Origin: Alphaproteobacteria bacterium | GTDB lineage: Bacteria > Pseudomonadota > Alphaproteobacteria > JAPULJ01 | Reading direction: 5' to 3' | Assembly (NCBI GenBank): GCA_037387885.1 | Contig: JARRKQ010000061.1 | Coordinates: 11,547-74,147, forward strand | Length of the DNA stretch: 62,601 bases | In this document: piece by piece, positions 5,010 to 53,579 of the stretch | How the letters are laid out: each line of letters begins with the position of its first letter | Numbering within the stretch: the first letter of the stretch is position 1 | Position numbers and translations under genes: made by a program | The notes under the pieces: model-generated | Database searches by the model: none | What the model saw: only the letters and a program-made list of their open reading frames with translations | Told to the model about the DNA's origin: nothing

Positions 5010-5939
5010 TCAATAGCCCCGCGCCGCATCGACGAGATTGTGCGGCGCCTCGCCCGCCCGCACCCGGCGAATGTTCTCGATCACCTGCGCGGCCGAGGTG
5101 CGCGGATTGGTGAGGCCGGCGATATGCGGCGTCACATGGACTTTCGGATGCGCCCAGAACGGATGGCCGTCGGGCAGCGGCTCGGTCTGAAAGACGTCGA
5201 GCGTTGCCCCGGCAATATGCCCGCGGTCGATCGCCGCCAGCAGATCGTCCTCCACGACATGGCCGCCGCGCGCGAGGTTGATCACGTAGGCGCCTTCGGG
5301 CAGCGTCCCGAAGGCGGCGGCATCGAGAATGCCGAGCGTCTCCGGTGTCAGCGGCAGCAGGCAGACGAGGATGTCGGTGCGCTGAAGGAACGCCGCGAAC
5401 CCGTCGTCCCCGTGAAAGCTCTCGATGCCGTCGAGCGATTTCGGCGTGCGGCTCCAGCCCGCGACCTGAAAGCCGAGCGAGGCCAGCTTCATCGCCGTAT
5501 CGCCGCCGATCGCCCCCAGCCCCAGCACGCCCGCGCGCACCAGCGGCGTATCGCGCAGCCCCGCGCTCGCCCAGCGCCCGGCGCGCTGGTTCGCATCGTA
5601 CGCGTCCATGTGCCGGTGGTGGCGCAGCGCCGCGAAGATCACGTACTCGCCCATCTGCCGCACCATATCGGGGTCGACGAGGCGGGCGACCGGCACGCCC
5701 TCGGGCAGCTCGGGGTCGACGAAGATGTGATCGACCCCCATGCCGAGCGACTGGATGAGCTTCAGATTGGAAAAGCGCGCGAGCAGGCCCGCTTCGGGCT
5801 TCCAGGCGAGCGCGAATTCGATCTCGGATGGATCCCCCGCCTCCGGCCAGACCCGGACTTCGAGGTCGGGCAGGCCCTCGGCCAGCATCGCGCGCCAGGC
5901 GTGGGGGTCGTCGGACTTGGAGATGAAGAGGAGGGGCAT
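5010..5939 (-). CDS. ghrA: Glyoxylate/hydroxypyruvate reductase A (D-2-hydroxyacid dehydrogenase family)
   Basis: GVLGLGAIG Rossmann motif, CLLPLTPET, INLARG, LDVF..EPL, TPHIA. Confidence 0.88.
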   Translation of the reverse strand: MPLLFISKSDDPHAWRAMLAEGLPDLEVRVWPEAGDPSEIEFALAWKPEAGLLARFSNLKLIQSLGMGVDHIFVDPELPEGVPVARLVDPDMVRQMGEYVIFAALRHHRHMDAYDANQRAGRWASAGLRDTPLVRAGVLGLGAIGGDTAMKLASLGFQVAGWSRTPKSLDGIESFHGDDGFAAFLQRTDILVCLLPLTPETLGILDAAAFGTLPEGAYVINLARGGHVVEDDLLAAIDRGHIAGATLDVFQTEPLPDGHPFWAHPKVHVTPHIAGLTNPRTSAAQVIENIRRVRAGEAPHNLVDAARGY

Positions 5940-5992
5940 GTCTGTCTGCGTGTTAATGCGAATCGCCTACGACCGGCAGCAGCCGAGGTCGC

Positions 5993-6577
5993 TCAGCCTG
6001 CCTTGAGACCGGCCAGCAGGATCCGCAAGACGTCCTTGAGATCGCGGTTGGTATCGCCCTCGGCCCATTTCTTGTGATGCGCCGGATGGTGGAAACGGAT
6101 GGTCGCCGCAAACACCGCCTTGGCCGTTCGCAGCGGGTTGGACTTCGCGAACTCGCCCGCCGCGATGCCGTCCTCGATGATCTTGGCCAACTGGCCGACC
6201 AGCTCCGCGACATGAGCCTGCGTGACCTCGCGCGCTTCCTCCGCGAGCGCGAGGTAGGTCGCGTAGAGCTCGGGGTCCTGACGCGCTTTTTCCTGCTTGA
6301 TCGAGGCGAGACCGGTAATCCAGCTCTCCAGGCGTTTCGTCGGCGACCCTCGCCCTTCGGCGATGGCCGACAGCGGCTCGGTTATGCGGGCGAGCCAGCG
6401 CGCGGTCACCGCATCGCGCAGCTCGGCCTTGCTCGCGTAGTGCCGATAGATTGTCCCATGGCTCACGCCCAGCGCGCGCGCGACGTCGACGATCGTCGTT
6501 TTCGTCGGGCCAAAGCGGCGCAGCACGTCTTCCGCCGTATCGACGATCCGGTCGGACGTGAGCACGTTCTCGCTCAA
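5993..6577 (-). CDS. TetR/AcrR-family transcriptional regulator
   Basis: TTG start at 6577 after a GAAGGGAGG RBS; HTH TTIVDVARALGVSHGTIYRHY. Confidence 0.9.
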   Translation of the reverse strand: MSENVLTSDRIVDTAEDVLRRFGPTKTTIVDVARALGVSHGTIYRHYASKAELRDAVTARWLARITEPLSAIAEGRGSPTKRLESWITGLASIKQEKARQDPELYATYLALAEEAREVTQAHVAELVGQLAKIIEDGIAAGEFAKSNPLRTAKAVFAATIRFHHPAHHKKWAEGDTNRDLKDVLRILLAGLKAG

Positions 6578-6734
6578 ACAGGCGCCTCCCTTCTGCATGG
6601 TCCATCTATCCCGCCCCATCCGAAAGGCGCGGCATCGCGCGCCGGACCAGGCGGCAGACAAGATACATGATTCGGGCGTGATGCAGCCTCCGAACTTCGC
6701 GGCCGAACGGGCGACCGGCTGAAGGGCGATCGGC

Positions 6735-7670
6735 CTAGGGCCGTTCGCTGTCGAGCATCGCCATCTGCGCGGGAACGTACCGGTCGCCCCGGGCCGCGCC
6801 CGGCGGAACGGCGGCTTCGATCTGCGCCATATCGTCGGCCGACAGCTGAACGTCGAGCGCGCCCAGCGATTCGCTCAGGCGGTCGCGCCGACGGGCGCCG
6901 ACCAGGGGCACGATGTCCTCGCCGCGCGCCAGGACCCAAGCCACGGCGATCTGGGCGACCGTGCAGTCCTTCGCCGCCGCCAGCTCGCGCAATCGCTCGA
7001 CAAGCGCCAGGTTGGTCTTGGCATTGTCGCCGGTGAAGCGCGGAAGGTGCGCGCGGAAGTCGTTGCCCGCGCTCGCCCGGTCCGCCGACCAGTGGCCGCT
7101 CAACAGCCCGCGGGACAAGACGCCGTAAGCCGATATGCTGATCCCAAGCTCGCGTGCCGTCGGCAGAATCTCCTCCTCGATGCCCCGCGAGATCAGGGAA
7201 TACTCGATCTGCAGCCAGGCGATCGGATGGACCGCGTGGGCGCGGCGCAGGGTGTCGGCGCCGGCCTCCGACAGCCCGATATGGCGCACGAAGCCGGCCT
7301 CGACCATGTCCTTGATGGCGCCCACGGTCTCTTCGATCGGCACATTCGGGTCGACGCGCGCCGGCTGGTAGAGGTCGACATAATCCGTGCCCAGGCGCCG
7401 CAGCGTGTAGGCGAGAAAGTTCTTCACCGCGGCGGGGCGGGCGTCGACGCCGATGAAGCCCAGATCCGGCGAGCGCATCGCGCCGAACTTCACGGCGATG
7501 AAGACGTCCTCGCGGCGGCGGCCCTCAAGGGCGTGGCGGATCAGTAGCTCGTTGTGCCCCGCGCCATAGAAGTCGCCGGTATCGAGAAGGTTGATCCCGG
7601 CATCCAGCGCCGCGTGAATGGTCGCGATGCTTTCGTCGCGGTCGGCGGGCCCATAGAAGTCCGACAAGCT
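6735..7670 (-). pseudogene. Aldo/keto reductase lacking its N-terminal ~20 codons and RBS (5'-truncated or mis-assembled)
   Basis: Body is a clear AKR (LLDTGDFYG, VKFG, DLYQPAR, IGLSE, LQIEYSL). It begins abruptly at SDFYG without the family's usual LG...GLGCMGM segment. Confidence 0.65.
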
Positions 7671-7696
7671 GATGCTGGAGACAGGATAGCAGATAA

Positions 7697-7720
7697 ATGA
7701 CAAATTTCAATATCTGTCAT
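7697..7720. promoter_or_regulatory. TetR-type operator-like palindrome ATGACAAAT-TTCAAT-ATCTGTCAT upstream of the AKR-tetR unit
   Basis: 9-bp arms with one mismatch in an AT-rich patch directly 5' of the AKR; a TetR gene follows in the same orientation. Confidence 0.6.
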
Positions 7721-7812
7721 TCCATATAATTCATGAGCGGGGCAGAGCGGGCAGCCGCTGCCCTGTTATGCCTCAACCCGTTTGCATCTGGATCGAACGT
7801 CCGAGGCCGGTC

Positions 7813-9444
7813 TCAAACCCCCACGACCCCGCTCGTATCGGCGCGGAGCTCGAAGGCGGCGGCCATGAGCGCCTTGGTGTAGGCCTCCTGCGGTGCGTCG
7901 ATCACCTGCGCGGCCGGACCTTGCTCGACCACCAGGCCGTTGCGCATGACGATCACGTCGTGGCTCATCGCGCGCACCACGCGGAGGTCGTGGGAAATGA
8001 AGATGTAGGCGAGCGCGTGGTCGCGCTGGAGCCCGCGCAGCAGCTCGACCATCTGCGCCTGCACCGACATGTCGAGCGCCGAGGTCGGCTCATCGAGGAT
8101 CAGGAGCTTGGGCTTCAGCACCATGGCGCGCGCGACCGAGATACGCTGGCGCTGGCCGCCGGAGAACTCATGCGGATAGCGGTGGCGGGTCGCGGGGTCG
8201 AGCCCGACCTCCTCGAGCGCCGCCACGACGCGCGCATCGCGTCCGTCGTCATCGCCGATGCCATGGATGCGAAGCCCTTCGCCGATGATCTCGCCCACGG
8301 TGAAGCGCGGCGAAAGGCTGCCGAAGGGATCCTGGAAGACGATCTGCATCTCGCGCCGCAGCGGCCGCAGCGCCTTGGAGCGCAGCCCCTGAATGTCGCG
8401 GCCCATGAAAACGATCGGCCCCTTCGAGGAGATGAGCCGGAGGATACCGAGCGCTAGGCTCGACTTGCCCGAGCCCGACTCGCCGACCACGCCCACGGTC
8501 TGGCCCGCGCGGATCTTGAAGCTCACCCCGTCGACCGCCTTCACGTAGTCGACGGTACGCCTCATCACCCCCGCCTTGATCGGATACCAAACGCGGAAAT
8601 CGTCGGCGGAAATAATCTCCGCCGCGGTCTCGTCATAGGCGCCGGGGGTGCCGCTCGGCTCGGCGGCGATGAGCTGCTTGGTATAGGGATGCTGGGGATT
8701 GGCGAACACTTCGTCGGTCGTGCCGTCTTCGACGATCTCGCCCAGGCGCATCACCGCGACGCGCGGCGCCATCTTGCGCACCACGCCGAGGTCGTGGGTG
8801 ATCAGCAGCATCGCCATGCCGAGCTTCTTCTGGAGCGCCAGCATGAGGTCGAGGATCTGGGCCTGGATCGTCACATCGACCGCGGTGGTCGGCTCGTCCG
8901 CGATCAGCAGATCGGGCTCGTTGGCGAGCGCCATGGCGATCATCACGCGCTGGCGCTGCCCGCCGGAAAGCTCGTGGGGAAAGGCGCCGAGACGTTGCGC
9001 CGCGTCGCGGATGCCCACGAGATCGAGCAGCTCGAGCGTGCGTGCGCGGGCCGCGCTCGCGACCAGGCCCTTATGCGTGATCAGGATCTCGTTGATCTGC
9101 TTCTCGATCGTGTGCAGCGGGTTGAGCGCGGTGATCGGCTCCTGGAAGACCATCGAGATGCGATCGCCGCGGATGTCGCGCATGGTCGCATCGCGCGCGC
9201 CGATCAGCTCCTGGCCGCGGAAGCGGATGCTGCCCGCCGGGTGGCTCGCGACCGGATAGTTCAAGAGCTGCAGGATCGAGAGCGCGGTCACCGACTTGCC
9301 CGAGCCCGACTCGCCGACGAGCGCCATCGTCTCGCCCTTCTCGATTTGGAAGGACACGCCTTTCACTGCTTCCGTCAGGCCGAGCGGCGTGCGGAAGGCG
9401 ACGTGCAGGTCCTCGACCTGGAGCAGGGGAGCCGTATCGGTCAT
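7813..9444 (-). CDS. yejF: Peptide ABC transporter ATP-binding protein with two ABC domains (YejF-like)
   Basis: Two GESGSGKS Walker A and two SGGQRQR signatures. True start is MTDTAPLL at 9444, overlapping the upstream stop; the 910-aa track ORF is over-extended. Confidence 0.9.
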   Translation of the reverse strand: MTDTAPLLQVEDLHVAFRTPLGLTEAVKGVSFQIEKGETMALVGESGSGKSVTALSILQLLNYPVASHPAGSIRFRGQELIGARDATMRDIRGDRISMVFQEPITALNPLHTIEKQINEILITHKGLVASAARARTLELLDLVGIRDAAQRLGAFPHELSGGQRQRVMIAMALANEPDLLIADEPTTAVDVTIQAQILDLMLALQKKLGMAMLLITHDLGVVRKMAPRVAVMRLGEIVEDGTTDEVFANPQHPYTKQLIAAEPSGTPGAYDETAAEIISADDFRVWYPIKAGVMRRTVDYVKAVDGVSFKIRAGQTVGVVGESGSGKSSLALGILRLISSKGPIVFMGRDIQGLRSKALRPLRREMQIVFQDPFGSLSPRFTVGEIIGEGLRIHGIGDDDGRDARVVAALEEVGLDPATRHRYPHEFSGGQRQRISVARAMVLKPKLLILDEPTSALDMSVQAQMVELLRGLQRDHALAYIFISHDLRVVRAMSHDVIVMRNGLVVEQGPAAQVIDAPQEAYTKALMAAAFELRADTSGVVGV

Positions 9445-10649
9445 GGCTCGGACTCCGGCGGCTGCCCGCCCTTGGTCAGATGACGCCGCGCCGTGGCGGC
9501 CGGCCCCGCCGTCGGCTCGACCATCGCCATCGCCGGCGGCGCGGTCGGCGATACGATCGTCTCTTCGGGCGGCACGCCGCCGGTCACCGCCTTGCGCGGA
9601 TCGAAGGCATCGCGCACCGCCTCGCCGATGAAGATCAGAAGCGAGAGCATGACGGCGATCACAGCGAAGGCGGTGATGACCAGCCACGGCGCGTGCAGGT
9701 TCGCCTTGCCCTGTTTCAGCATCTCGCCGAGCGAGGCCGAGCCGGGCGGCAGGCCGAAGCCGAGGAAATCGAGCGAGGTCAGCGCCACGATCGAGCCCTG
9801 AAGGATGAACGGCATGAAGGTGATGGTCGCGACCATCGCGTTGGGCAGCACGTGACGGAACATGATGGCGCCGTCGGAGGCCCCCAGTGCGCGCGCGGCG
9901 CGCACGTAATCGAAGTTGCGCGCGCGCAGGAATTCTGCCCGCACCACGCCGACGAGCCCCATCCAGCTGAACAACAACAGAATGCCGAGCAGCCACCAGA
10001 AGTTCGGCTCGATGATCGCCGACAAGATGATCAGCAAATAGAGCAGCGGAACGCTGTCCCAGATCTCGATGAAGCGCTGGAAATAAAGATCGATGCGGCC
10101 GCCGAAATAGCCCTGCACCGCGCCCGCCGCCACGCCGACGATGGTCGAGAGAATGGTGAGGATGATGCCGAACAGCACCGAAATCCGGAAACCGTAGATG
10201 AGCCGCGCCACTACGTCGCGGCCCTGATCGTCGGTGCCGAGCCAATTCTGCGCCGTCGGATAGGAGGGCGCGGGGACGGGCAGATTGCGGATCTGCGTGT
10301 CGTGGCGGAAGGGGATGATCGGCCAGACCACCCAGCCGCCCTTCTTCTTGATGTTCTCGATCAGGTATTCGTCGGTGAAATCGGCGGTGGTCGCGAAATC
10401 GCCGCCGAAGGTCGTCTCCGGATACGACTTGATCACCGGCGAATAGAGGCCGCCGTCGTACCAGACGAGCAGCGGCTTGTCGTTGGCGATGAACTCGGCG
10501 AAGAGGCTCAAGAAGAACAGGATCAGGAACATCCAGAGCGACCACACGCCGCGCCGGTTGGCGCGGAAGTTGGCGAGCCGCCGCTCGGAGATCGGCGAGA
10601 GCGTCCAGAAGAAAAAGCGTCGCGCGCCTGTCTTGCCCAATCGCGCCAT
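9441..10649 (-). CDS. yejE: Peptide ABC transporter permease (YejE-like)
   Basis: NWLGTDDQGRDVVARLIYGFRIS, RAEFLRARNFDYVRAARALG, LDFLGFGLPPGSASLGE. Confidence 0.9.
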   Translation of the reverse strand: MARLGKTGARRFFFWTLSPISERRLANFRANRRGVWSLWMFLILFFLSLFAEFIANDKPLLVWYDGGLYSPVIKSYPETTFGGDFATTADFTDEYLIENIKKKGGWVVWPIIPFRHDTQIRNLPVPAPSYPTAQNWLGTDDQGRDVVARLIYGFRISVLFGIILTILSTIVGVAAGAVQGYFGGRIDLYFQRFIEIWDSVPLLYLLIILSAIIEPNFWWLLGILLLFSWMGLVGVVRAEFLRARNFDYVRAARALGASDGAIMFRHVLPNAMVATITFMPFILQGSIVALTSLDFLGFGLPPGSASLGEMLKQGKANLHAPWLVITAFAVIAVMLSLLIFIGEAVRDAFDPRKAVTGGVPPEETIVSPTAPPAMAMVEPTAGPAATARRHLTKGGQPPESEP

Positions 10650-10653
10650 CGTC

Positions 10654-11760
10654 TCAGACTTCCCTTGTCTCGAAATCGATGCGCGGATCGACGAAGACGT
10701 AAGTGAGATCGGTGATGAGCTTGATCAGCAGGCTCAGCAACGAGAACACATAAAGCGTGGCGAAGACGATCGGGTAGTCGCGCTCGAACACGGCCGTGAA
10801 GCCGAGCAGGCCGAGGCCTTCGAGCGAGAAGATCACCTCGATCAACAGCGAGCCGGCGAAGAAGATGCCGACGAATGCCGCGGGAAAACCCGCGATCACG
10901 ATCAGCATCGCGTTGCGGAAGATGTGGCCGTAGAGCACCCGGCGCTCGGGGATGCCCTTGGCGCGCGCGGTCAGCACGTACTGCTTGTTGATCTCGTCGA
11001 GGAACGAGTTCTTGGTCAGCATGGTGAGGCTGGCGAAGCCGCCAATCACCATGGCGAAGACCGGCAGGGTGATGTGCCAGAAATAATCGGCGATCTTTCC
11101 GAAGAAGGAGAGATCGTGCCAATTCGAGGAGACGAGCCCGCGCAAGGGGAACCAGTCGAGATAGCGTCCACCCGCGAAGATCACGACGAGCAGGATGGCG
11201 AAGAGGAAGCCCGGGATCGCGTTGCCGATGATGATGACGCCGCTGGTCCAGCCGTCGAAGCGCGAGCCGTCGCGCTTGGCCTTGGCGATGCCGAGCGGAA
11301 TGCAGATGAGATAGATGATCAGGGTCGTCCAAAGCCCGAGCGAGATCGAGACCGGCATCGCCTCGAGCACGAGCTGCATCACCGGTTTGCCTTTGAAGAA
11401 GCTGTCACCGAAATCGAAGGTAACGTACTTCCCCAACATCACCGCGAATTGCTCGTGGAGCGGCTTGTCGAGACCGAATTCTTTCTTCAGGCGCTCGATC
11501 AGCTTGGGATCGATGCCGCGCGCCGCCCGGCTCTTCGACTCGTCGCCGGCGCCCGTGCTTTGCTGGCCGCCGCCCGTTTCGGCCTGGCCGCCGCCCGAGC
11601 CGATGCGCTCGGTCGCCGCCGCGCTTCGCCCGCGCATCTCCGCGATCAGCCGCTCGACCGGCCCGCCGGGGGCGGTCTGGATCAGCGCGAAGTTGATCAC
11701 CATGATGCCGAAGAGTGTCGGCAGAATGAGCAGAAGCCGGCGGACGATATAGGCAAACAT
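10654..11760 (-). CDS. yejB: Peptide ABC transporter permease (YejB-like)
   Basis: MFAYIVRRLLLILPTLFGI, APGGPVE, TKNSFLDEINKQYVLTARAKG, DPRIDFE. Confidence 0.92.
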   Translation of the reverse strand: MFAYIVRRLLLILPTLFGIMVINFALIQTAPGGPVERLIAEMRGRSAAATERIGSGGGQAETGGGQQSTGAGDESKSRAARGIDPKLIERLKKEFGLDKPLHEQFAVMLGKYVTFDFGDSFFKGKPVMQLVLEAMPVSISLGLWTTLIIYLICIPLGIAKAKRDGSRFDGWTSGVIIIGNAIPGFLFAILLVVIFAGGRYLDWFPLRGLVSSNWHDLSFFGKIADYFWHITLPVFAMVIGGFASLTMLTKNSFLDEINKQYVLTARAKGIPERRVLYGHIFRNAMLIVIAGFPAAFVGIFFAGSLLIEVIFSLEGLGLLGFTAVFERDYPIVFATLYVFSLLSLLIKLITDLTYVFVDPRIDFETREV

Positions 11761-11830
11761 TGGCTAGCGGCCGCCCACGGTCAGGGACGGGTAAGAGCTG
11801 GGAGCGGGGCGGGAGCGCCGGCCACGGTCG

Positions 11831-13717
11831 TCAGTTCGGTTTCAGCGCCGAGCCCAACGCCGCTTCTTTCTTCTTGTCGACCCACCAGACGAAGAGATCC
11901 TCGCCGCGGATGGTCGGCTTGCCCGGCCGGCCGAACTTGTCCCAGAAGACGATGCGCTGCGCCGGAATGTGCCATTGCGGGATCACATAGTGGTGCCACA
12001 GCAGAACCCGGTCGAGCGCGCGGGTGCGGGCAACGAGGCTGTCGCGGTCGGGCGCGGAGATGACCAGCTCGACCAGCTCGTCGATCGCCTTGTCGCTCAC
12101 GCCGAGCCAATTCTGCGAGCCCTCGATCTTGGCCGCATGGCTGCCCCAATAGTTGCGCTGCTCGTTGCCGGGGCTGAGCGACTGGCCGAAGGTGAGCGTC
12201 GTGATGTCGTAGTCGAACTTGCGCATCCGCGCTTCATACTGCGATGGATCGACAAGGCGCACCCGCGCCCTGATGCCAAGCCGCTCGAGGTTCTTGGCGA
12301 AGGGCAGCAGGATGCGCTCGAATTCCTGGCTGCCGGTGAGGATCTCGAACTCCATCGCCTCGCCGGTCTTTGCGTTGACGAGCTTCTGGTTCTTGACCAC
12401 CCAGCCGGCCGCTTTCAGCAGCTTGAAGGCCTCGCGCAAGCCACGCCGCAGCTCGCGCCGGTTCGTGTAGGTGGGAACGTCGTAGACCTTGGTGAAGACT
12501 TCGGGCGGCACCCGCCCCTTGAAGCGCTTGAGGATCTTCAGCTCCTCGCCCTTCGGCAGGCCGCTCGAGGCGAGCTCGGAGTTCTCGAAATAGCTCTTGG
12601 TCCGCTTGTACTGCCCGAAGAAGAGCGTGCGGTTCGTGTAGTTGAAGTCGAAGGCGTAGCCGAGCGCCCGGCGCACCCGCGGATCGGAGAATTTTGCCTT
12701 CCGCGAATTGATCGCGAAGGCCTGCATGCCCGCGCCGCTTTCGGTCGGCACCAGCAGCTTGATCAGCTTCTTCGCCTTCAGCGCCGGGATCTCGTAGGCC
12801 GTCGCCCACGCCTTGGCCTGATTTTCCTGGCGGTAGTCGATGCGGCCCGACTTCAGCGCCTCGCGCAGCACGGTGGTGTCGCGGTAGTAGTCGAGGCGGA
12901 TGCGGTCGAAATTGTGGCGCCCGCGCATGATCGGCAGATTGGCCGCCCAATAGTTCTTGTCGCGGACGTAAGTGATGCGCCGGCCGGCCTCGAACTTTTC
13001 GATCCGGTAAGGCCCGCTGCCCACCGGCGGGTCGAGCGTCGGCTTGGTGAAATCGCGCTTCTCCCAATAGTGCTTCGGCAGCACCGTGAGCTCGGCGATG
13101 ATGAGCGGCAGCTCGCGGTTCTCGCCGGGCTTGAAGGTGAACTTCACCTTGAGCGGGCCCAGCTTCTCCACCTTGGCAACGTGGCTGTAGTAGAAGCGAT
13201 AGAAGGGCACGCCCTTTTCGACCAGGATGTTGAAGGAGAAGATCACGTCGTCGGCGGTGATCGGCTTGCCGTCGTGAAAGCGCGCTTCCTTGCGGATATT
13301 AAAGATCACCCAGGAGCGGTCCTTGGGCACCTCCATCGACTCGGCAATCAGCCCGTAGCGGGTGAAGGCCTCGTCGTTCGAGGCCATCGTGAGCTGGTCG
13401 TTCAGGAGGCCGATCAGCCCGGCCGCCGTCCCGCGGATGATGTAGCCGTTGAAGGAATCGAAGGTGCCGCGGACGCCCAGGCGCACGGTGCCGCCCTTGG
13501 GGGCGTTCGGATTGACGTAATCGAAATGCGTGAAGCCCGCTTTGTATTTCACGTCGCCGTGCATAGCGATGCCGTGCGTCGGGGCGATGCCGTGCGACGG
13601 GGATTGCGCCGCCGCGTGCCCGCCGGCCATCGCCCCCAACACCAAAACCGCGAATAACGGGGCCCGCGGCAATGCAGCGGCGACGGCCGCGCTCGCGGCC
13701 GGCAGGAGCTTTGTCAT
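11831..13717 (-). CDS. yejA: Peptide ABC transporter substrate-binding protein (YejA-like)
   Basis: HGIAMHGDVKY...FDYVNPNAPKGG, GSGPY, SPGNEQRNYWGS; signal peptide; first gene of a yejABEF-type operon. Confidence 0.9.
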   Translation of the reverse strand: MTKLLPAASAAVAAALPRAPLFAVLVLGAMAGGHAAAQSPSHGIAPTHGIAMHGDVKYKAGFTHFDYVNPNAPKGGTVRLGVRGTFDSFNGYIIRGTAAGLIGLLNDQLTMASNDEAFTRYGLIAESMEVPKDRSWVIFNIRKEARFHDGKPITADDVIFSFNILVEKGVPFYRFYYSHVAKVEKLGPLKVKFTFKPGENRELPLIIAELTVLPKHYWEKRDFTKPTLDPPVGSGPYRIEKFEAGRRITYVRDKNYWAANLPIMRGRHNFDRIRLDYYRDTTVLREALKSGRIDYRQENQAKAWATAYEIPALKAKKLIKLLVPTESGAGMQAFAINSRKAKFSDPRVRRALGYAFDFNYTNRTLFFGQYKRTKSYFENSELASSGLPKGEELKILKRFKGRVPPEVFTKVYDVPTYTNRRELRRGLREAFKLLKAAGWVVKNQKLVNAKTGEAMEFEILTGSQEFERILLPFAKNLERLGIRARVRLVDPSQYEARMRKFDYDITTLTFGQSLSPGNEQRNYWGSHAAKIEGSQNWLGVSDKAIDELVELVISAPDRDSLVARTRALDRVLLWHHYVIPQWHIPAQRIVFWDKFGRPGKPTIRGEDLFVWWVDKKKEAALGSALKPN

Positions 13718-13790
13718 CGGTCTTCACCCTCCGAGGCTTGCGGTCGGCACGCGCGCTGCCCCGGTGAGACGAGGCGCGCGCATATTTGAC

Positions 13791-31802: not shown

Positions 31803-31983
31803 ATGTACATTCTTCGTCGATTGCGTGGACGACGTCAAGGCGCCATTAACCATACCACGCCGCCACAAATCTCACGCTATATCTTGCGATATTTCGCATG
31901 ATGACCACAAGGTATTCCGCCGTGGTTGACGCTCCGGCCGCCGCCGCATACCTAGTAAGACACGGAAAACAGAACCTTAACCC

Positions 31984-32541
31984 ATGGCCCATCTTCCCAT
32001 CATCACGGCGCCCGATCCGCGCCTCAAGCAGAAGGCCGAGCCGATCGCGAGCGTCGACGACGCGGTCCGCAAGCTGCTCGACGACATGCTCGAGACCATG
32101 TATGCGGCGCCTGGCATCGGCCTCGCAGCGCCGCAGGTCGGCGTGCTGAAGCGCGCGGTCGTGGTCGATGTCGCCGAGGCAGACGAGGCGAAACGGGCGC
32201 TCAAGCTGATCAACCCCGAGCTCGTCTGGGTCTCCGACGACGACTTCAAATACGAGGAGGGCTGCCTCTCGCTGCCCGATCATTACGCCGAGGTCGAGCG
32301 GCCGCATGCGATCCGGGTGAAGCATCTGGACGAGACCGGCGCGGAGAGCGAGCTCGAGGCCGAGGGCCTGCTCGCCACCTGCATCCAGCACGAAATGGAC
32401 CACCTCGACGGCATTCTCTTTGTCGACCGCATCTCGGCGATCCGCCGCAACGTGATCCTGCGCAAGCTTCTGAAGGCGAAGAAGACGAAGACGCTGCCCG
32501 ACTACGCCGAGATCTCGATGCGCGTGGCGAGCGAAGCCTGA
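31984..32541 (+). CDS. def: Peptide deformylase
   Basis: GIGLAAPQVG, EGCLS, QHEMDHLDG. Confidence 0.96.
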   Translation: MAHLPIITAPDPRLKQKAEPIASVDDAVRKLLDDMLETMYAAPGIGLAAPQVGVLKRAVVVDVAEADEAKRALKLINPELVWVSDDDFKYEEGCLSLPDHYAEVERPHAIRVKHLDETGAESELEAEGLLATCIQHEMDHLDGILFVDRISAIRRNVILRKLLKAKKTKTLPDYAEISMRVASEA

Positions 32542-32613
32542 GGCGCGTTTCCCGATCCAACGACTAGACCAGCCGTGCGCCGATCCGGCCGCGCGTGCTA
32601 AACAGCGCGCGCG

Positions 32614-33540
32614 ATGACGCTCCGCCTGATCTTCATGGGCACGCCCGATTTCGCGGTGCCGAGCCTCGATGCCCTGGTCGCCGCCGGGCACGAGATCGTC
32701 TGCGCCTACTCGCAGCCGCCCCGCAAGGCCGGACGCGGCCAGAAGGAAAAGCTGCAGCCGGTCCATGCCGCCGCCGAAGCGCATGGCATCCCGGTGCGGA
32801 CCCCAACGAGCTTCAAATCGCCCGAGACCCAGGCCGATTTTACCGCGCTCAAGGCCGATGCCGCGGTGGTCGCCGCCTACGGCCTCATCCTGCCCAAGCC
32901 GATCCTCGAGGCACCGCGCCTCGGCTGCCTCAACATCCATGCCTCGCTGCTGCCGCGCTGGCGCGGCGCCGCGCCGATCCAGCGCGCCATCCTCGCCGGT
33001 GACCAGAAGACCGGCGTCACCATCATGCAGATGGACGAGGGCCTCGATACCGGGGCGATCCTGCTCAGGCACGCGGTGGAGATCGGGCGCATGACGGCCG
33101 GCGAACTGCACGACGAGCTGGCGGATTTGGGTGCGGCAATGATCGTCGAGGCACTCAAGCGTCTCGAGGCGGGGACCTTGAAAGCGAAACCGCAACCCCT
33201 GAAACGCGGTGTTATCTATGCGCACAAGATCGATCGCGCCGAAGCGCGGCTCGACTGGACGAAACCCAGCGCCGAACTCGACCGCACAATCCGCGCCTTC
33301 ACACCGTTCCCCGGCGCTTGGTTCGAGCATGCGGGTGAGCGCATCCGCGTGTTGAATGCGAAAGCCGCGGGCGGGCGGTCACGCGCCAGGCCCGGCACGG
33401 TGATAGACGACGCCTTCACTGTCCGGTGTGGCAAGGGCTTCCTGAAGCTCCGCACCGTTCAGCGCGCAGGCAAGGGGGCCATGGATGCCGACGCCTTCCT
33501 GCGCGGCTACGCGATCCCCAAAGGCACGGTCCTTACGTGA
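32614..33540 (+). CDS. fmt: Methionyl-tRNA formyltransferase
   Basis: [45 protein letters not shown]. Confidence 0.96.
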
Positions 33541-50790: not shown

Positions 50791-51570
50791 ATGCCTGAGC
50801 AAAAGGCGCCGCCTGCCGACGGACCGATCGGCGATCCGGCCCCGGCATCGAAGTTCTCGCTCGCCAAGCTGATCCCGCTCGGCATTTTGCTGGCCGGGCT
50901 GATCGCCTTCTTCGCGACCGGGCTCAACAAATATGTGAGCTTCGCCGAGCTCGCCAAGCACCACACCGCGCTCGCGGCCTGGGTGCAGGACAATTTCCTG
51001 CTGGCCGTGCTGTGCTACGTCGCCGCCTATGCCGTGATGATCGCCTTCTCGCTGCCGGGCGGGGCCGTGGCGACGATCTTCGGCGGCTTCCTCTTCAGCA
51101 CCGTGGTCGACGGAATCCCCGGCACCATCCTCGCCGCCGCGATCGTCGTGATCGGCGCTACGGTCGGCGCCACCGCACTTTTCCTCGCCGCGCGCACCGG
51201 CTTGGGCGAGCCCTTGCGCGCGCGGGCCGGACCGAACCTGAGACGCATGGAGGCGGGCTTTCGCGAGAACGCGATGAGCTATCTCCTGGTGCTGCGCCTG
51301 GTGCCGCTCTTCCCGTTCTGGCTGGTCAATCTGGTGCCCGCCTTCCTGGGCGTGCCGCTCCGGACCTACGTCATCGGCACCTTCTTCGGCATCATGCCGG
51401 GCACCTTCGTCTATGCCAGCGTGGGCAGTGGCCTGGGCGCGATCCTGGAGGCCGGCGAAAGCCCCGATCTCGGCATCATCTTCAAGGGCGAGATCCTGAT
51501 CCCTCTCCTCGGCCTGGCGCTGCTGGCCCTGATCCCGGTGATCTACAAGCGGATCAAGACCAAGCGATAG
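50791..51570 (+). CDS. TVP38/TMEM64 (VTT, DedA superfamily) membrane protein
   Basis: FSLPGGAVAT, ATVGATALFL, LRLVPLFPFWLVN, GIMPGTFVYA. Confidence 0.9.
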   Translation: MPEQKAPPADGPIGDPAPASKFSLAKLIPLGILLAGLIAFFATGLNKYVSFAELAKHHTALAAWVQDNFLLAVLCYVAAYAVMIAFSLPGGAVATIFGGFLFSTVVDGIPGTILAAAIVVIGATVGATALFLAARTGLGEPLRARAGPNLRRMEAGFRENAMSYLLVLRLVPLFPFWLVNLVPAFLGVPLRTYVIGTFFGIMPGTFVYASVGSGLGAILEAGESPDLGIIFKGEILIPLLGLALLALIPVIYKRIKTKR

Positions 51571-51776
51571 CGCCGGTGCGCACCCCCGTGTGACGGCGGC
51601 TCACGCCAATCAACGACGTTTCACGGTTATTTGATCCCAATTGATTCCTTTAGATGGGCCGGGGCCCATAGATTCAAACCCGGACGCGGACGGCGGACTA
51701 GTCGTCGTTTGATTCCAGGCCGGCGGTCCAGACACGCAAGCGAGCGTCGGCGCATCCCATCACCAGGAGGCTTCAT

Positions 51777-52025
51777 ATGCTTAATAAGAAAACCGTCATT
51801 GCCCTTTCCGTCGCCGCCCTCGCCGCCTCGACCGCGGCGCTGCCTGCCGCTGCCGCCGGCACCGACAACCCCGTGCAGATCGCCGGTTGCGGTGCTTGTG
51901 GCGCGAAGAAGGGCTGCGGTGCCTGCGGCGCGAAGAAGGGCTGCGGCGCCTGTGGTGCCAAGAAGGGCTGCGGCGCCTGCGGTGCCAAGAAGGGCTGCGG
52001 TGCGTGTGGCGCGAAGAAGAAATAA
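51777..52025 (+). CDS. Small secreted Cys-rich repeat peptide, signal peptide + (GCGACGAKK)x5
   Basis: AGGAGG RBS; Sec-type signal MLNKKTVIALSVAALAASTAALPAAAA; five 27-bp units (51885-52019) with synonymous variation; downstream terminator. Confidence 0.88.
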   Translation: MLNKKTVIALSVAALAASTAALPAAAAGTDNPVQIAGCGACGAKKGCGACGAKKGCGACGAKKGCGACGAKKGCGACGAKKK

Positions 52026-52082
52026 TCAAACGACGCGTTTAGGGGCGGGCCACCGCCCCATCTAGGGCCCATTTGGGTTAGG

Positions 52083-52122
52083 GCGGCGCATCCGGGAAAA
52101 CCGGGTGCGCCGCTCGCTTTTT
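52083..52122 (+). terminator. Intrinsic terminator-like hairpin after the Cys-rich peptide gene
   Basis: GCGGCGCATCCGG-GAAAA-CCGGGTGCGCCGC (13-bp stem) followed by TCGCTTTTT. Confidence 0.65.
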
Positions 52123-52187
52123 CGGGCCCAGCGCCAAGCGCTGCCATTACCCTTCGCCGGGACCGCAAAAGACACTATATTTCGCCC

Positions 52188-53579
52188 ATGCCGGGCAGAT
52201 CGCTCCTACCGCCCCTGGTGCACAGCCTGTCGGCCAGATTGCTGGTCTTGACGGTGCTCTTCGTCATGCTTGTCGAGGTGTTCGTCTACGCGCCCTCGAT
52301 CGCGCGCTACCGCAAGGTCTATCTCGACGACCGCATCGCCGACGCGCATCTGGCGACGCTGGCGCTGGAGGCCGCCCCCGACTTCATGGTCGGCCAGCAG
52401 CTGCGCCGCCAGCTCCTCGACCATGCCCGCGCCTACGGCATCATCACCATGAAGCCGGGCTCGCGAAAGATCACGCTGCTGCGCGACATGCCGCCCACGG
52501 TCGATTTGAAGATCGATCTGCGCAAGGAGACCTTCTTCGGTCTCATCATGGATGCCTTCGAGACCCTGTGGCAGAGCAGCAACCGGGTCTTGAGCGTGAT
52601 GGGCCCGTCGCCCAAGGACAAGAACACGATGATCGAGGTGGTGCTCGACGAAGAGCCGCTGCGCATGGAGATGCTCGACTACTCGCGGCGCATCCTGCTG
52701 CTGTCGCTGATCATCTCCTTCGTCACCGCGGTTCTGGTCTATCTCAGCCTGCAATGGCTTTTGGTGCGCCCGATGCGCCAGCTGACCGCGAACATGACCG
52801 CCTTTTCCATGGCCCCGGAGGATGCGACCCGCCTGATGTCGCCTTCGGCGCGGAGCGATGAGATCGGCGTGGCCCAGCGCCAGCTCGAATCGATGCAGCG
52901 CGCGCTGCGCGATGCGCTCCGCCAGAAGACGCGGCTGGCCGCACTCGGCACGGCGGTCACCAAGATCAACCACGACTTGCGCAATCTGCTCTCGACGGCG
53001 AGCCTGCTCTCAGAGCGACTGGAGGGCGCCAAGGATCCCAAGGTGCGCGAGGTCGCGCCGCGCCTGGAAAGCGCCCTCGACCGCGCCGTCGTCCTCTGCA
53101 CCGACACGCTCGACTTCGCCAAGTCGGAGGCGATCGAGCCGAAGCCGATGCCGGTCGACCTGCATAGCCTGGTCGAGGACGTCGCCGGCACTTTGCCGGT
53201 GAAGCAGAACGGCGGCGGCTCGACCCTGACCAGCACCGTGCCGCCGAACCTCACGGCGCTCGCCGACCGCACGCATCTTTACCGGGCGCTCTCCAATCTC
53301 GGCGCCAACGCGGTTCAGGCCGGCGCCGCGAATATCACGATCAGCGCCGCGGCGGCGGGCGGCCGTGTCCACATTGACGTCGCCGATGACGGCCCCGGCC
53401 TGCCGCGGAGCGCCCGCGAGCATCTCTTCGCGCCCTTCGAAGGCTCCGGGCGCAGCGGCGGATCGGGGCTCGGCCTCGCCATCGCGCGCGAGCTCACGCA
53501 GGCCCAGGGCGGCGATCTCAGCCTCGTGGAGAGCAGCGACAAGGGCACGACCTTCCGGATCGAGCTGCCCAAAGCTTAG
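52188..53579 (+). CDS. HAMP-domain sensor histidine kinase
   Basis: Two TM segments, HAMP (RSDEIGVA), H-box KINHDLRNLL, N/G boxes LGANAVQAG, DDGPG, GSGLGLAI. Confidence 0.92.
   Translation: MPGRSLLPPLVHSLSARLLVLTVLFVMLVEVFVYAPSIARYRKVYLDDRIADAHLATLALEAAPDFMVGQQLRRQLLDHARAYGIITMKPGSRKITLLRDMPPTVDLKIDLRKETFFGLIMDAFETLWQSSNRVLSVMGPSPKDKNTMIEVVLDEEPLRMEMLDYSRRILLLSLIISFVTAVLVYLSLQWLLVRPMRQLTANMTAFSMAPEDATRLMSPSARSDEIGVAQRQLESMQRALRDALRQKTRLAALGTAVTKINHDLRNLLSTASLLSERLEGAKDPKVREVAPRLESALDRAVVLCTDTLDFAKSEAIEPKPMPVDLHSLVEDVAGTLPVKQNGGGSTLTSTVPPNLTALADRTHLYRALSNLGANAVQAGAANITISAAAAGGRVHIDVADDGPGLPRSAREHLFAPFEGSGRSGGSGLGLAIARELTQAQGGDLSLVESSDKGTTFRIELPKA

Follow-up and report, generated by a model that had tools for sequence, protein, structure and literature searches.

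The 62,601-nucleotide stretch of alphaproteobacterial DNA analyzed here (the window) carries a small gene for an exported peptide made of five identical GCGACGAKK units. It represents, as a stand-alone protein, a periplasmic Cys-repeat module that had not been described. A cytochrome P460-family haem protein of the same genome carries this module too, as an N-terminal arm of ~150 residues. In several deep alphaproteobacterial clades, the gene for the free peptide has stayed immediately upstream of a PDC-type sensor histidine kinase that is orthologous throughout. Judging from sequence and gene context, we favor, tentatively, the reading that the mature peptide is disordered and acts in the periplasm as a multi-thiol ligand, probably of Cu(I) or in redox chemistry, with a functional tie to this kinase.

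The exported peptide and its Cys-repeat module

The gene translates as MLNKKTVIALSVAALAASTAALPAAAAGTDNPVQIA(GCGACGAKK)x5K. The product divides into a signal peptide (MLNKKTVIALSVAALAASTAALPAAAA), the spacer GTDNPVQIA, five identical nonapeptides and a final Lys (Table 1). Its 10 Cys form five CxxC pairs, 11 of its 13 Lys lie within the repeat region, and it contains no aromatic residue and no His. The signal peptide shows no twin-arginine motif on reading the sequence, and its putative AxA cleavage site was placed by the same reading and by conservation in a family alignment (alignment A1). In that alignment, K5, A14, A16, L22, P23 and A25 of the signal peptide are invariant or nearly so, and P23, Q34 and A36 are invariant.

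Tandem Repeats Finder reported a period of 27 nt with 4.9 copies and an 88% nucleotide match. The 27-nt units differ at six columns, every one of which is a codon third position, and 35/35 pairwise unit differences are synonymous, so that the five units are identical as protein. This synonymous-only variation indicates that the protein sequence, not the DNA repeat, is conserved. An initial annotation of this DNA had described the open reading frame by its signal peptide, spacer, five identical nonapeptides and Cys and Lys counts, and was correct in every detail checked. It had also stated that the protein repeat is under selection and that the gene has its own ribosome-binding site and terminator, and had named as neighbors a VTT/DedA membrane protein and a HAMP sensor kinase; the synonymous differences, the flanking signals and Pfam agree with these statements.

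A homologue search by indexed words found 51 close homologues of the peptide, and a full profile search of 1.84 billion proteins yielded 216 representative clusters. GGAG or GGAGG stands at the same distance from the start in all 19 homologous loci inspected. Since these homologues and clusters share the architecture, and every homologue inspected has a GGAG-type Shine-Dalgarno sequence, the open reading frame is no chance frame. The gene is real and under selection, and it carries a ribosome-binding site and a terminator of its own.

The module consists of a signal peptide, a [PT][VI]Q[LIV]AxC start and tandem C-x2-3-C or NPC units of small residues, all of which are found in the peptide. The family signal peptide is well conserved (KKTxxALSVAALAAxTxALPAAAA), and the end of the spacer, [PT][VI]Q[LIV]A, precedes the tandem Cys units. 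These vary by lineage and include GCGACGAKK, GCNPCAAKK, NPCNPCAAK, the Lys-free CNPCNPCAAA and the acidic CDPCAP. Lys is common in the units and not universal, and neither net charge nor strict CxxC spacing holds across the family; the constant feature is a dense Cys array among small residues. Among 401 evenly drawn species of Alphaproteobacteria, 37 genomes (about 9%) from 30/307 genera contain the module. A Pfam and NCBIfam profile search of the peptide returned no family at E <= 1, DUF2282 and the bacterial metallothioneins included, and a literature search for the repeat strings found no paper.

AlphaFold2 modelling with the family alignment gave a mean predicted local distance difference test score (pLDDT) of 44 for the peptide and of 37-43 over the five repeat units, with the signal helix (H5-17) as the sole predicted helix. 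The mature peptide, of ~55 residues with ten thiols, is predicted to be disordered. A lipoprotein reading of the string IAGC ([LVI][ASTVI][GAS]C) was rejected because it lies nine polar residues past the hydrophobic region and AxA site, and several homologues have no Cys at this position. The module-start motif opens the repeat arms of cytochrome fusions at 60-90 residues from the N-terminus, so the QLAxC string is no lipobox.

A family-profile search of this genome revealed a second member on contig C58, and with it a sharing of the module with a haem protein that the initial annotation had missed. Its signal peptide and spacer lead into PVQLAAC and ~150 residues of GCGACGAKK-type units, among which stands a conserved SCVIPRLAKA motif; after them comes a cytochrome P460-family domain (Pfam PF16694, 37 bits) with CxxCH at its end. 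The same fusion occurs in the compared locus L090 and in at least 10 other peptide-bearing genomes. It was found in at least 11/18 peptide-bearing genomes and in 0/18 peptide-free relatives (Fisher p = 1e-4). One apparent exception, G017, carries two free peptides elsewhere. Between the free peptide and the fusion of the same genome, or of a sister genome, unit flavor varies in step; GCGACGAKK is confined to the window clade and CDPCAP to Rhodovibrio. In ~7/10 genomes, the 5-mers of the free peptide were best or jointly best matched by the fusion of its own or a sister genome. This co-variation implies gene conversion, recent duplication or a common partner.

In the proteins P0052, P0150, P0101, P0167 and P0138, NPC-type Cys repeats flank a different c-type cytochrome domain (LWND...LS.NG.SC..CH) on both sides. 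The repeats of P0101 bear Met and His (NPCGMKH, NPCDMKDH).

Annotation of the family is also affected by the opposite strand. Across the repeats of the window, an antisense frame is open at 51773-52168 (minus strand; APQAPQPF...), with a counterpart in L090 (LQGLQPRFLAA...), where the frame at 5859-6413 (minus strand) was called as a gene and the true Cys-repeat-P460 open reading frame was truncated. Gene callers often split Cys-repeat proteins and call a spurious antisense frame over the repeats, which indicates that automatic annotation systematically mis-calls the family.

The conserved kinase neighborhood and a putative ligand role

In every close homologue context that was fetched, the peptide gene lies directly upstream of an orthologue of the window kinase. 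The wider gene order is rnpA-yidD-yidC (minus strand), DedA, a 474-aa FAD-dependent pyridine-nucleotide-disulfide oxidoreductase (Pyr_redox), the peptide where present, the kinase and panB-panC. A scan of kinase orthologues with one genome per species covered 80 loci from Rhodospirillales-like lineages; among the 75 loci with enough flank, Pyr_redox was found upstream of the kinase in 52 and DedA in 62. The peptide was present at 19/84 kinase-orthologue loci. Its presence was clustered on the kinase tree, requiring 8 state changes compared to 17.3 in label shuffles (0/500 shuffles as low). The peptide-bearing loci span several deep clades, between which the kinases are only ~50% identical. In the even class-wide draw, 15-16 of 25 small free peptides (~60%) adjoined the orthologous kinase, and most of the remaining free copies adjoined a gene for DUF6969, with or without an FGE-like gene or a cytochrome fusion. 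Synteny thus strongly backs the tie to the adjacent kinase that had been proposed from the window sequence.

The Pyr_redox gene has been lost from the locus in the window clade (window, L008, L006, L187, L188 and L190), and the best orthologue in this genome lies on contig C12 (minus-strand frame 31820-33274). The 474-aa oxidoreductase, which is MerA/RclA-like, stands between DedA and the peptide and kinase genes in L001 (5487-8398) and is missing from the window (50791-52188). In two Defluviicoccus loci (L075 and L087), the kinase is directly preceded by an open frame of 665 codons, an indication that DedA and the oxidoreductase are fused there.

The kinase reached no NCBIfam equivalog, and no response regulator gene is adjacent. 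Its AlphaFold2 model had a pLDDT of 86, and the periplasmic domain (residues about 38-165) was modelled confidently as a PDC/PAS-like alpha/beta sensor. A fold search with this sensor domain gave the DraK sensor domain as the best PDB match; the match was weak, and none reached E <= 0.001. Since the resemblance is only generically PDC/PAS-like, the ligand of the kinase is not guessable from the fold.

Other neighbors were found around family members outside the kinase locus. In three genomes with more distant free peptides, the peptide gene is the first of an operon with a 143-aa secreted Cys/His protein, a 182-aa secreted Cys protein and SCO1/SenC. In L088 a sulfite-oxidase-family molybdoenzyme closes this operon, and in L090 the same 143-aa/182-aa/SCO1 trio lies near the peptide. 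The 143-aa protein carries the motif CYxTE...HHxCxxWC and the 182-aa protein the motif CxxxxDCxxxC; for neither was a Pfam function, an NCBIfam match or a PDB sequence relative found. A search of this genome, whose assembly is 71.5% complete, gave no homologues of the SCO1-operon proteins. One family member adjoins CutA1. A literature keyword search on periplasmic Cys-rich copper proteins returned nothing specific.

In the reading we favor, the peptide would act after Sec export as a periplasmic multi-thiol ligand. Its cysteine pairs would bind a soft metal, with Cu(I) as the leading candidate, so that the peptide would serve as a metallothionein-like buffer or shuttle; alternatively, its thiols may cycle between dithiol and disulfide. 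The loaded or oxidised state could be read by the periplasmic domain of the kinase, the peptide being an accessory ligand like ZraP for ZraS or CpxP for CpxA. Another option is that the peptide gene would be a dedicated output of the kinase pathway, like SilE/PcoE beside SilRS/PcoRS. Cu(I) or redox chemistry is suggested by the pairing of cysteines, by the contexts with SCO1/SenC and CutA1 and by the repeat variant with Met/His; the chelator proposed in the initial annotation is plausible in view of the SCO1/SenC operons, the CutA1 neighbor and the Met/His variants.

Several observations weigh against this ligand reading. No classical copper-resistance gene (copA, cueO, cus, pco) adjoins the peptide, and the kinase is not a member of TIGR01386 (cztS_silS_copS), with a score of 75.9 bits where the cut-off is 292.55. 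Cys is absent from the periplasmic domain of the kinase. In the oxidising periplasm, free thiols would need a reductant. The units read CGAAC in the near relative L008, and in some family members each unit holds a single Cys. Because of the terminator between them, the peptide and kinase genes are not co-transcribed; their link would be regulatory or functional. The strongest partners other than the kinase, DUF6969 and the FGE-like protein, point as much to enzymatic processing as to chelation, and the rhodanese, YeeE-type transporter and sulfite-oxidase-family genes of some contexts fit a sulfur-carrier role equally well.

The sequences around the gene hold further conserved elements. The terminator stem is conserved in L008, as are both arms of a 12-nt perfect inverted repeat. 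A small local hairpin (51689-51706) overlaps the 5' arm with its 3' half; on RNA folding, the arms were paired in the centroid structure, and the minimum-free-energy structure took the competing hairpin. The pairing fits a helix that could close the mRNA. Complementarity between 5' and 3' sequences unrelated to these was observed in L005 (7868-7885/8266-8283), L006 (7923-7933/8200-8210) and L009 (2962-2976/3254-3268); comparable complementarity was absent from L001 and L066. Farther upstream, a block with a 10-bp direct repeat is conserved between the window and L008 although the surrounding spacer has diverged. It resembles an OmpR-type response-regulator site and may be a candidate regulator site. 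A scan of the window for sigma-70-type promoters found none, and an Rfam scan around the peptide gene gave only sub-threshold noise. A crude 9-mer search of 16 upstream regions revealed no convincing common operator beyond G+C-rich words (8/16, compared to 6 in shuffles).

Candidate partner enzymes and competing roles

Genes for an FGE-sulfatase-fold protein and DUF6969 recur around the cytochrome fusion in five compared loci (C58, L090, L131, L132 and L133), and a rhodanese gene lies near the fusion in four of them, C58 among them. DUF6969 is His-rich and has no signal peptide. It was found in 17/18 peptide-bearing genomes compared to 7/18 peptide-free relatives (Fisher p = 9e-4). Its gene adjoins the free peptide in 6/25 loci of the even draw and also in L090 and G034. 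In L193 the order is Pyr_redox, peptide, DUF6969 (reverse strand) and kinase, so that both main contexts are merged in one locus.

These associations speak for the main rival to the ligand reading, namely a maturation system in which DUF6969, the FGE-fold protein or both would process the Cys arrays of free peptide and cytochrome arms. The cytoplasmic DUF6969 would act before Sec export, as MNIO does for bufferins, and the working form would be a modified poly-Cys peptide. In this genome, contig C58 encodes both candidate enzymes, unlinked to the peptide gene. The co-variation of unit flavor between peptide and fusion within lineages is as a common partner would predict, but it could be plain gene conversion or recent duplication. 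Against maturation stands the lack of a known fold, catalytic motif, PDB sequence relative, Pfam function or NCBIfam match for DUF6969, on which a literature search found no paper. DUF6969 also occurs in seven genomes with no detected Cys-repeat protein, and the canonical FGE target CxPxR is absent, as is Pro from the GCGACGAKK units of this genome. Taken together, we regard enzymatic maturation as possible, if on balance unlikely. A wider proposal joins it to the kinase: free peptide, cytochrome arms, DUF6969 and FGE-fold protein would form a new envelope system that matures or loads Cys arrays, with the peptide as a diffusible reporter read by the PDC-type kinase. This we consider speculative and rather unlikely.

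A covalent carrier or redox arm is a further alternative. The thiols would carry sulfane sulfur, thiosulfonate or NO (nitric oxide) adducts, in a SoxY-like manner, to or from periplasmic haem enzymes, and the free peptide would be a diffusible version of the arm on P460-like and second c-type cytochrome heads. The fusion of repeats to a P460-family domain and their position on either side of another CxxCH cytochrome domain are consistent with this, as are the rhodanese genes near the fusions, the Sulf_transp, DUF302 and rhodanese genes around L090 and the molybdoenzyme of the L088 operon. SCO1/SenC, being of thioredoxin fold, could act as a reductase of thiols. However, the paired cysteines of CxxC speak for disulfides or chelated metal rather than persulfide carriage. 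No sox gene adjoins the peptide, the neighbors related to sulfur are few and are common genes, and the linkage to the kinase is left unexplained. A carrier role therefore seems quite unlikely to us.

Very doubtful is the idea that the slot beside the kinase is a tolerated insertion site and that the peptide serves the P460/DUF6969 system or general envelope thiol buffering. It accords with the strong terminator between the two genes, with the 65/84 kinase orthologues that have no peptide and with the presence of the family in other contexts; the kinase tree also requires a minimum of 4 and as many as 8 gains or losses. Yet the same slot, from Pyr_redox or DedA to the kinase, is used in clades whose kinases are so divergent, and it holds the majority of free copies in the even sample; chance re-insertion or passive retention over such an evolutionary distance is unlikely.

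The initial annotation had also likened the peptide to HvfA/bufferin-type precursors modified by MNIO (DUF692) enzymes, and had suggested an unlinked enzyme acting in trans. The resemblance is superficial: oxazolins (HvfA, Buf_EGKCG) have EGKCG repeats and a Sec signal peptide rather than a leader, and known precursor genes directly precede MNIO (PF05114) and DUF2063 (PF09836) genes, often with DoxX (PMC12452194). The peptide shares the Sec-type signal and a Cys-rich, Lys-containing repeat; its unit has no Glu and no KCG in register, it matches no Pfam or NCBIfam family, and its neighbors are DedA and the histidine kinase. A profile search of the whole assembly gave no PF05114 or PF09836 match, which alone is a weak negative since this metagenome-assembled genome is incomplete and an MNIO gene could have been missed. 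MNIO was present in 4/18 peptide-bearing genomes and missing from 14/18, and adjoined the peptide in none of the loci examined. The complete genome of the cultured Algihabitans albus ac2 has a single MNIO gene, ~1.5 Mb from its Cys-repeat peptide; at this locus, the sole MNIO locus inspected, it lies in a canonical bufferin cluster (L180, ~2.23 Mb) with a DUF2282-type precursor (KCYGIAKAGENDCA...HSCAGQ), DUF2063 and DoxX. Dependence on MNIO/DUF2063 was therefore rejected, and MNIO modification in trans is close to refuted, with hardly any probability left to it. The suggestion of an unlinked modifying enzyme survives only as the option of the DUF6969 and FGE-like candidates on contig C58.

Table 1. 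Positions of the peptide gene, its signals and neighbors, and of related clusters (window positions unless a contig or locus is named).
Feature	Position	Strand	Remarks
Exported Cys-repeat peptide gene	51777..52025	+	82 codons/aa, stop codon included; open reading frame list, translation, homologues
Sec-type signal peptide, residues 1-27	51777..51857	+	MLNKK, hydrophobic core, LPAAAA with AxA cleavage site; read from sequence
Spacer GTDNPVQIA	51858..51884	+	Holds module-start motif [PT]-[VI]-Q-[LIV]-A-x-C; alignment A1
Five 27-nt units encoding GCGACGAKK, and final Lys codon	51885..52022	+	Tandem Repeats Finder, repeat-family search, synonymous-only variation
Shine-Dalgarno AGGAGG	51765..51770	+	6 nt ahead of ATG; read from sequence
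Conserved upstream block, 10-bp direct repeat ATTTGATCCC/AATTGATTCC	51629..51648	+	~130-150 bp before ATG
Inverted repeat, 5' arm CGTCGTTTGATT	51703..51714	+	12 nt, perfect
Inverted repeat, 3' arm AATCAAACGACG	52024..52035	+	12 nt, perfect; overlaps stop codon
Intrinsic terminator between peptide and kinase genes	52081..52125	+	15-bp G+C-rich stem, loop of 5, T-run
Orphan sensor histidine kinase	52188..53579	+	Transmembrane helix 1, periplasmic PDC/PAS-like domain, transmembrane helix 2, HAMP, HisKA, HATPase_c; Pfam
DedA/VTT-domain membrane protein	50791..51570	+	Upstream of peptide gene; Pfam VTT_dom
Contig C58 (locus L093) cluster	6504-13731		Cupin gene, fusion, FGE-like, DUF6969, rhodanese, HAMP kinase
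C58 Cys-repeat-P460 fusion	7665-8747	-	Second family member of this genome
C58 FGE-sulfatase-fold gene	8977-9879	+	
C58 DUF6969 gene	about 10161-10826	+	
C58 rhodanese gene	11017-11511	-	
C58 HAMP histidine kinase	11668-13731	-	
SCO1/SenC operon or cluster, L088	7001-9996		
SCO1/SenC operon or cluster, L097	7001-9796		
SCO1/SenC operon or cluster, L151	1477-3270		
SCO1/SenC operon or cluster, L090	2893-4509	-	

Comparison with known systems

A conserved, uncharacterised sensor kinase, DUF6969 and haem proteins are all linked to the Cys-repeat family, which gene finders have missed or mis-called. If the peptide is a ligand of the kinase, it would open a way into an orphan two-component system; should it be enzymatically matured, it would represent a new class of modified periplasmic peptides. 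Both the ligand and the maturation ideas are directly testable in Algihabitans albus ac2 (NZ_CP159482), a cultured carrier whose genome is complete and in which peptide and kinase lie at ~3.79-3.80 Mb (L066).

Within the genome, the peptide resembles the poly-Cys arm of the P460 fusion, with which it shares the QLAxC start, the unit flavor within a lineage and the partners DUF6969 and FGE-like. Unlike the arm, the peptide has no haem domain and no central C[VA][IV]PRL, comprises five units only and lies in a kinase-linked locus.

Bacterial metallothioneins (SmtA/BmtA, MymT) and metal sponges (SilE/PcoE, ZraP) are likewise short, of low complexity, poor in aromatic residues and disordered in the apo form. 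SmtA/BmtA and MymT have clustered CxxC thiols, as does the peptide. SilE/PcoE and ZraP are exported small proteins encoded beside a two-component sensor, as is the peptide. In contrast, bacterial metallothioneins are cytosolic and show no sequence match to the peptide, and SilE/PcoE use Met/His instead of Cys. The kinase here falls outside CusS/SilS/CopS, and no efflux or oxidase genes accompany it.

SoxY, with its GGCGG swinging arm, resembles the peptide in being periplasmic, in carrying a Gly-flanked Cys on a flexible segment and in having c-type cytochrome and thioredoxin-fold partners. It differs in bearing one carrier Cys on a folded Ig-like protein encoded in sox operons, while the peptide has ten paired Cys, is predicted to be disordered and has no sox genes nearby.

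Among kinase-associated proteins, MgrB with PhoQ, CpxP with CpxA and ExoR with ExoS/ChvG are also small envelope proteins encoded next to, or regulated by, a kinase. The periplasmic cysteines of MgrB make PhoQ redox-sensitive. These proteins have no sequence relation to the peptide, for which no membrane anchor is expected after cleavage.

Oxazolins and bufferins are small, Cys-rich and periplasmic, with a Sec signal, and the oxazolins have short Lys/Gly/Cys repeats (PMC12452194). The peptide differs from them in having neither EGKCG nor DUF2282 and in its partners, which are a sensor kinase, DUF6969, an FGE-like protein and cytochrome fusions. In its action it would come closest to a periplasmic metallothionein, or to a metal sponge encoded next to a sensor (SilE/PcoE, ZraP), and in appearance it is closest to an oxazolin or bufferin precursor. 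Because it fails the tested defining features of both groups, it is filed as a member of neither. Exported Cys-array peptides have so far been understood almost wholly through the MNIO paradigm of bufferins, oxazolins and methanobactin, and the Cys-repeat family stands beside them as a comparable, MNIO-independent one.

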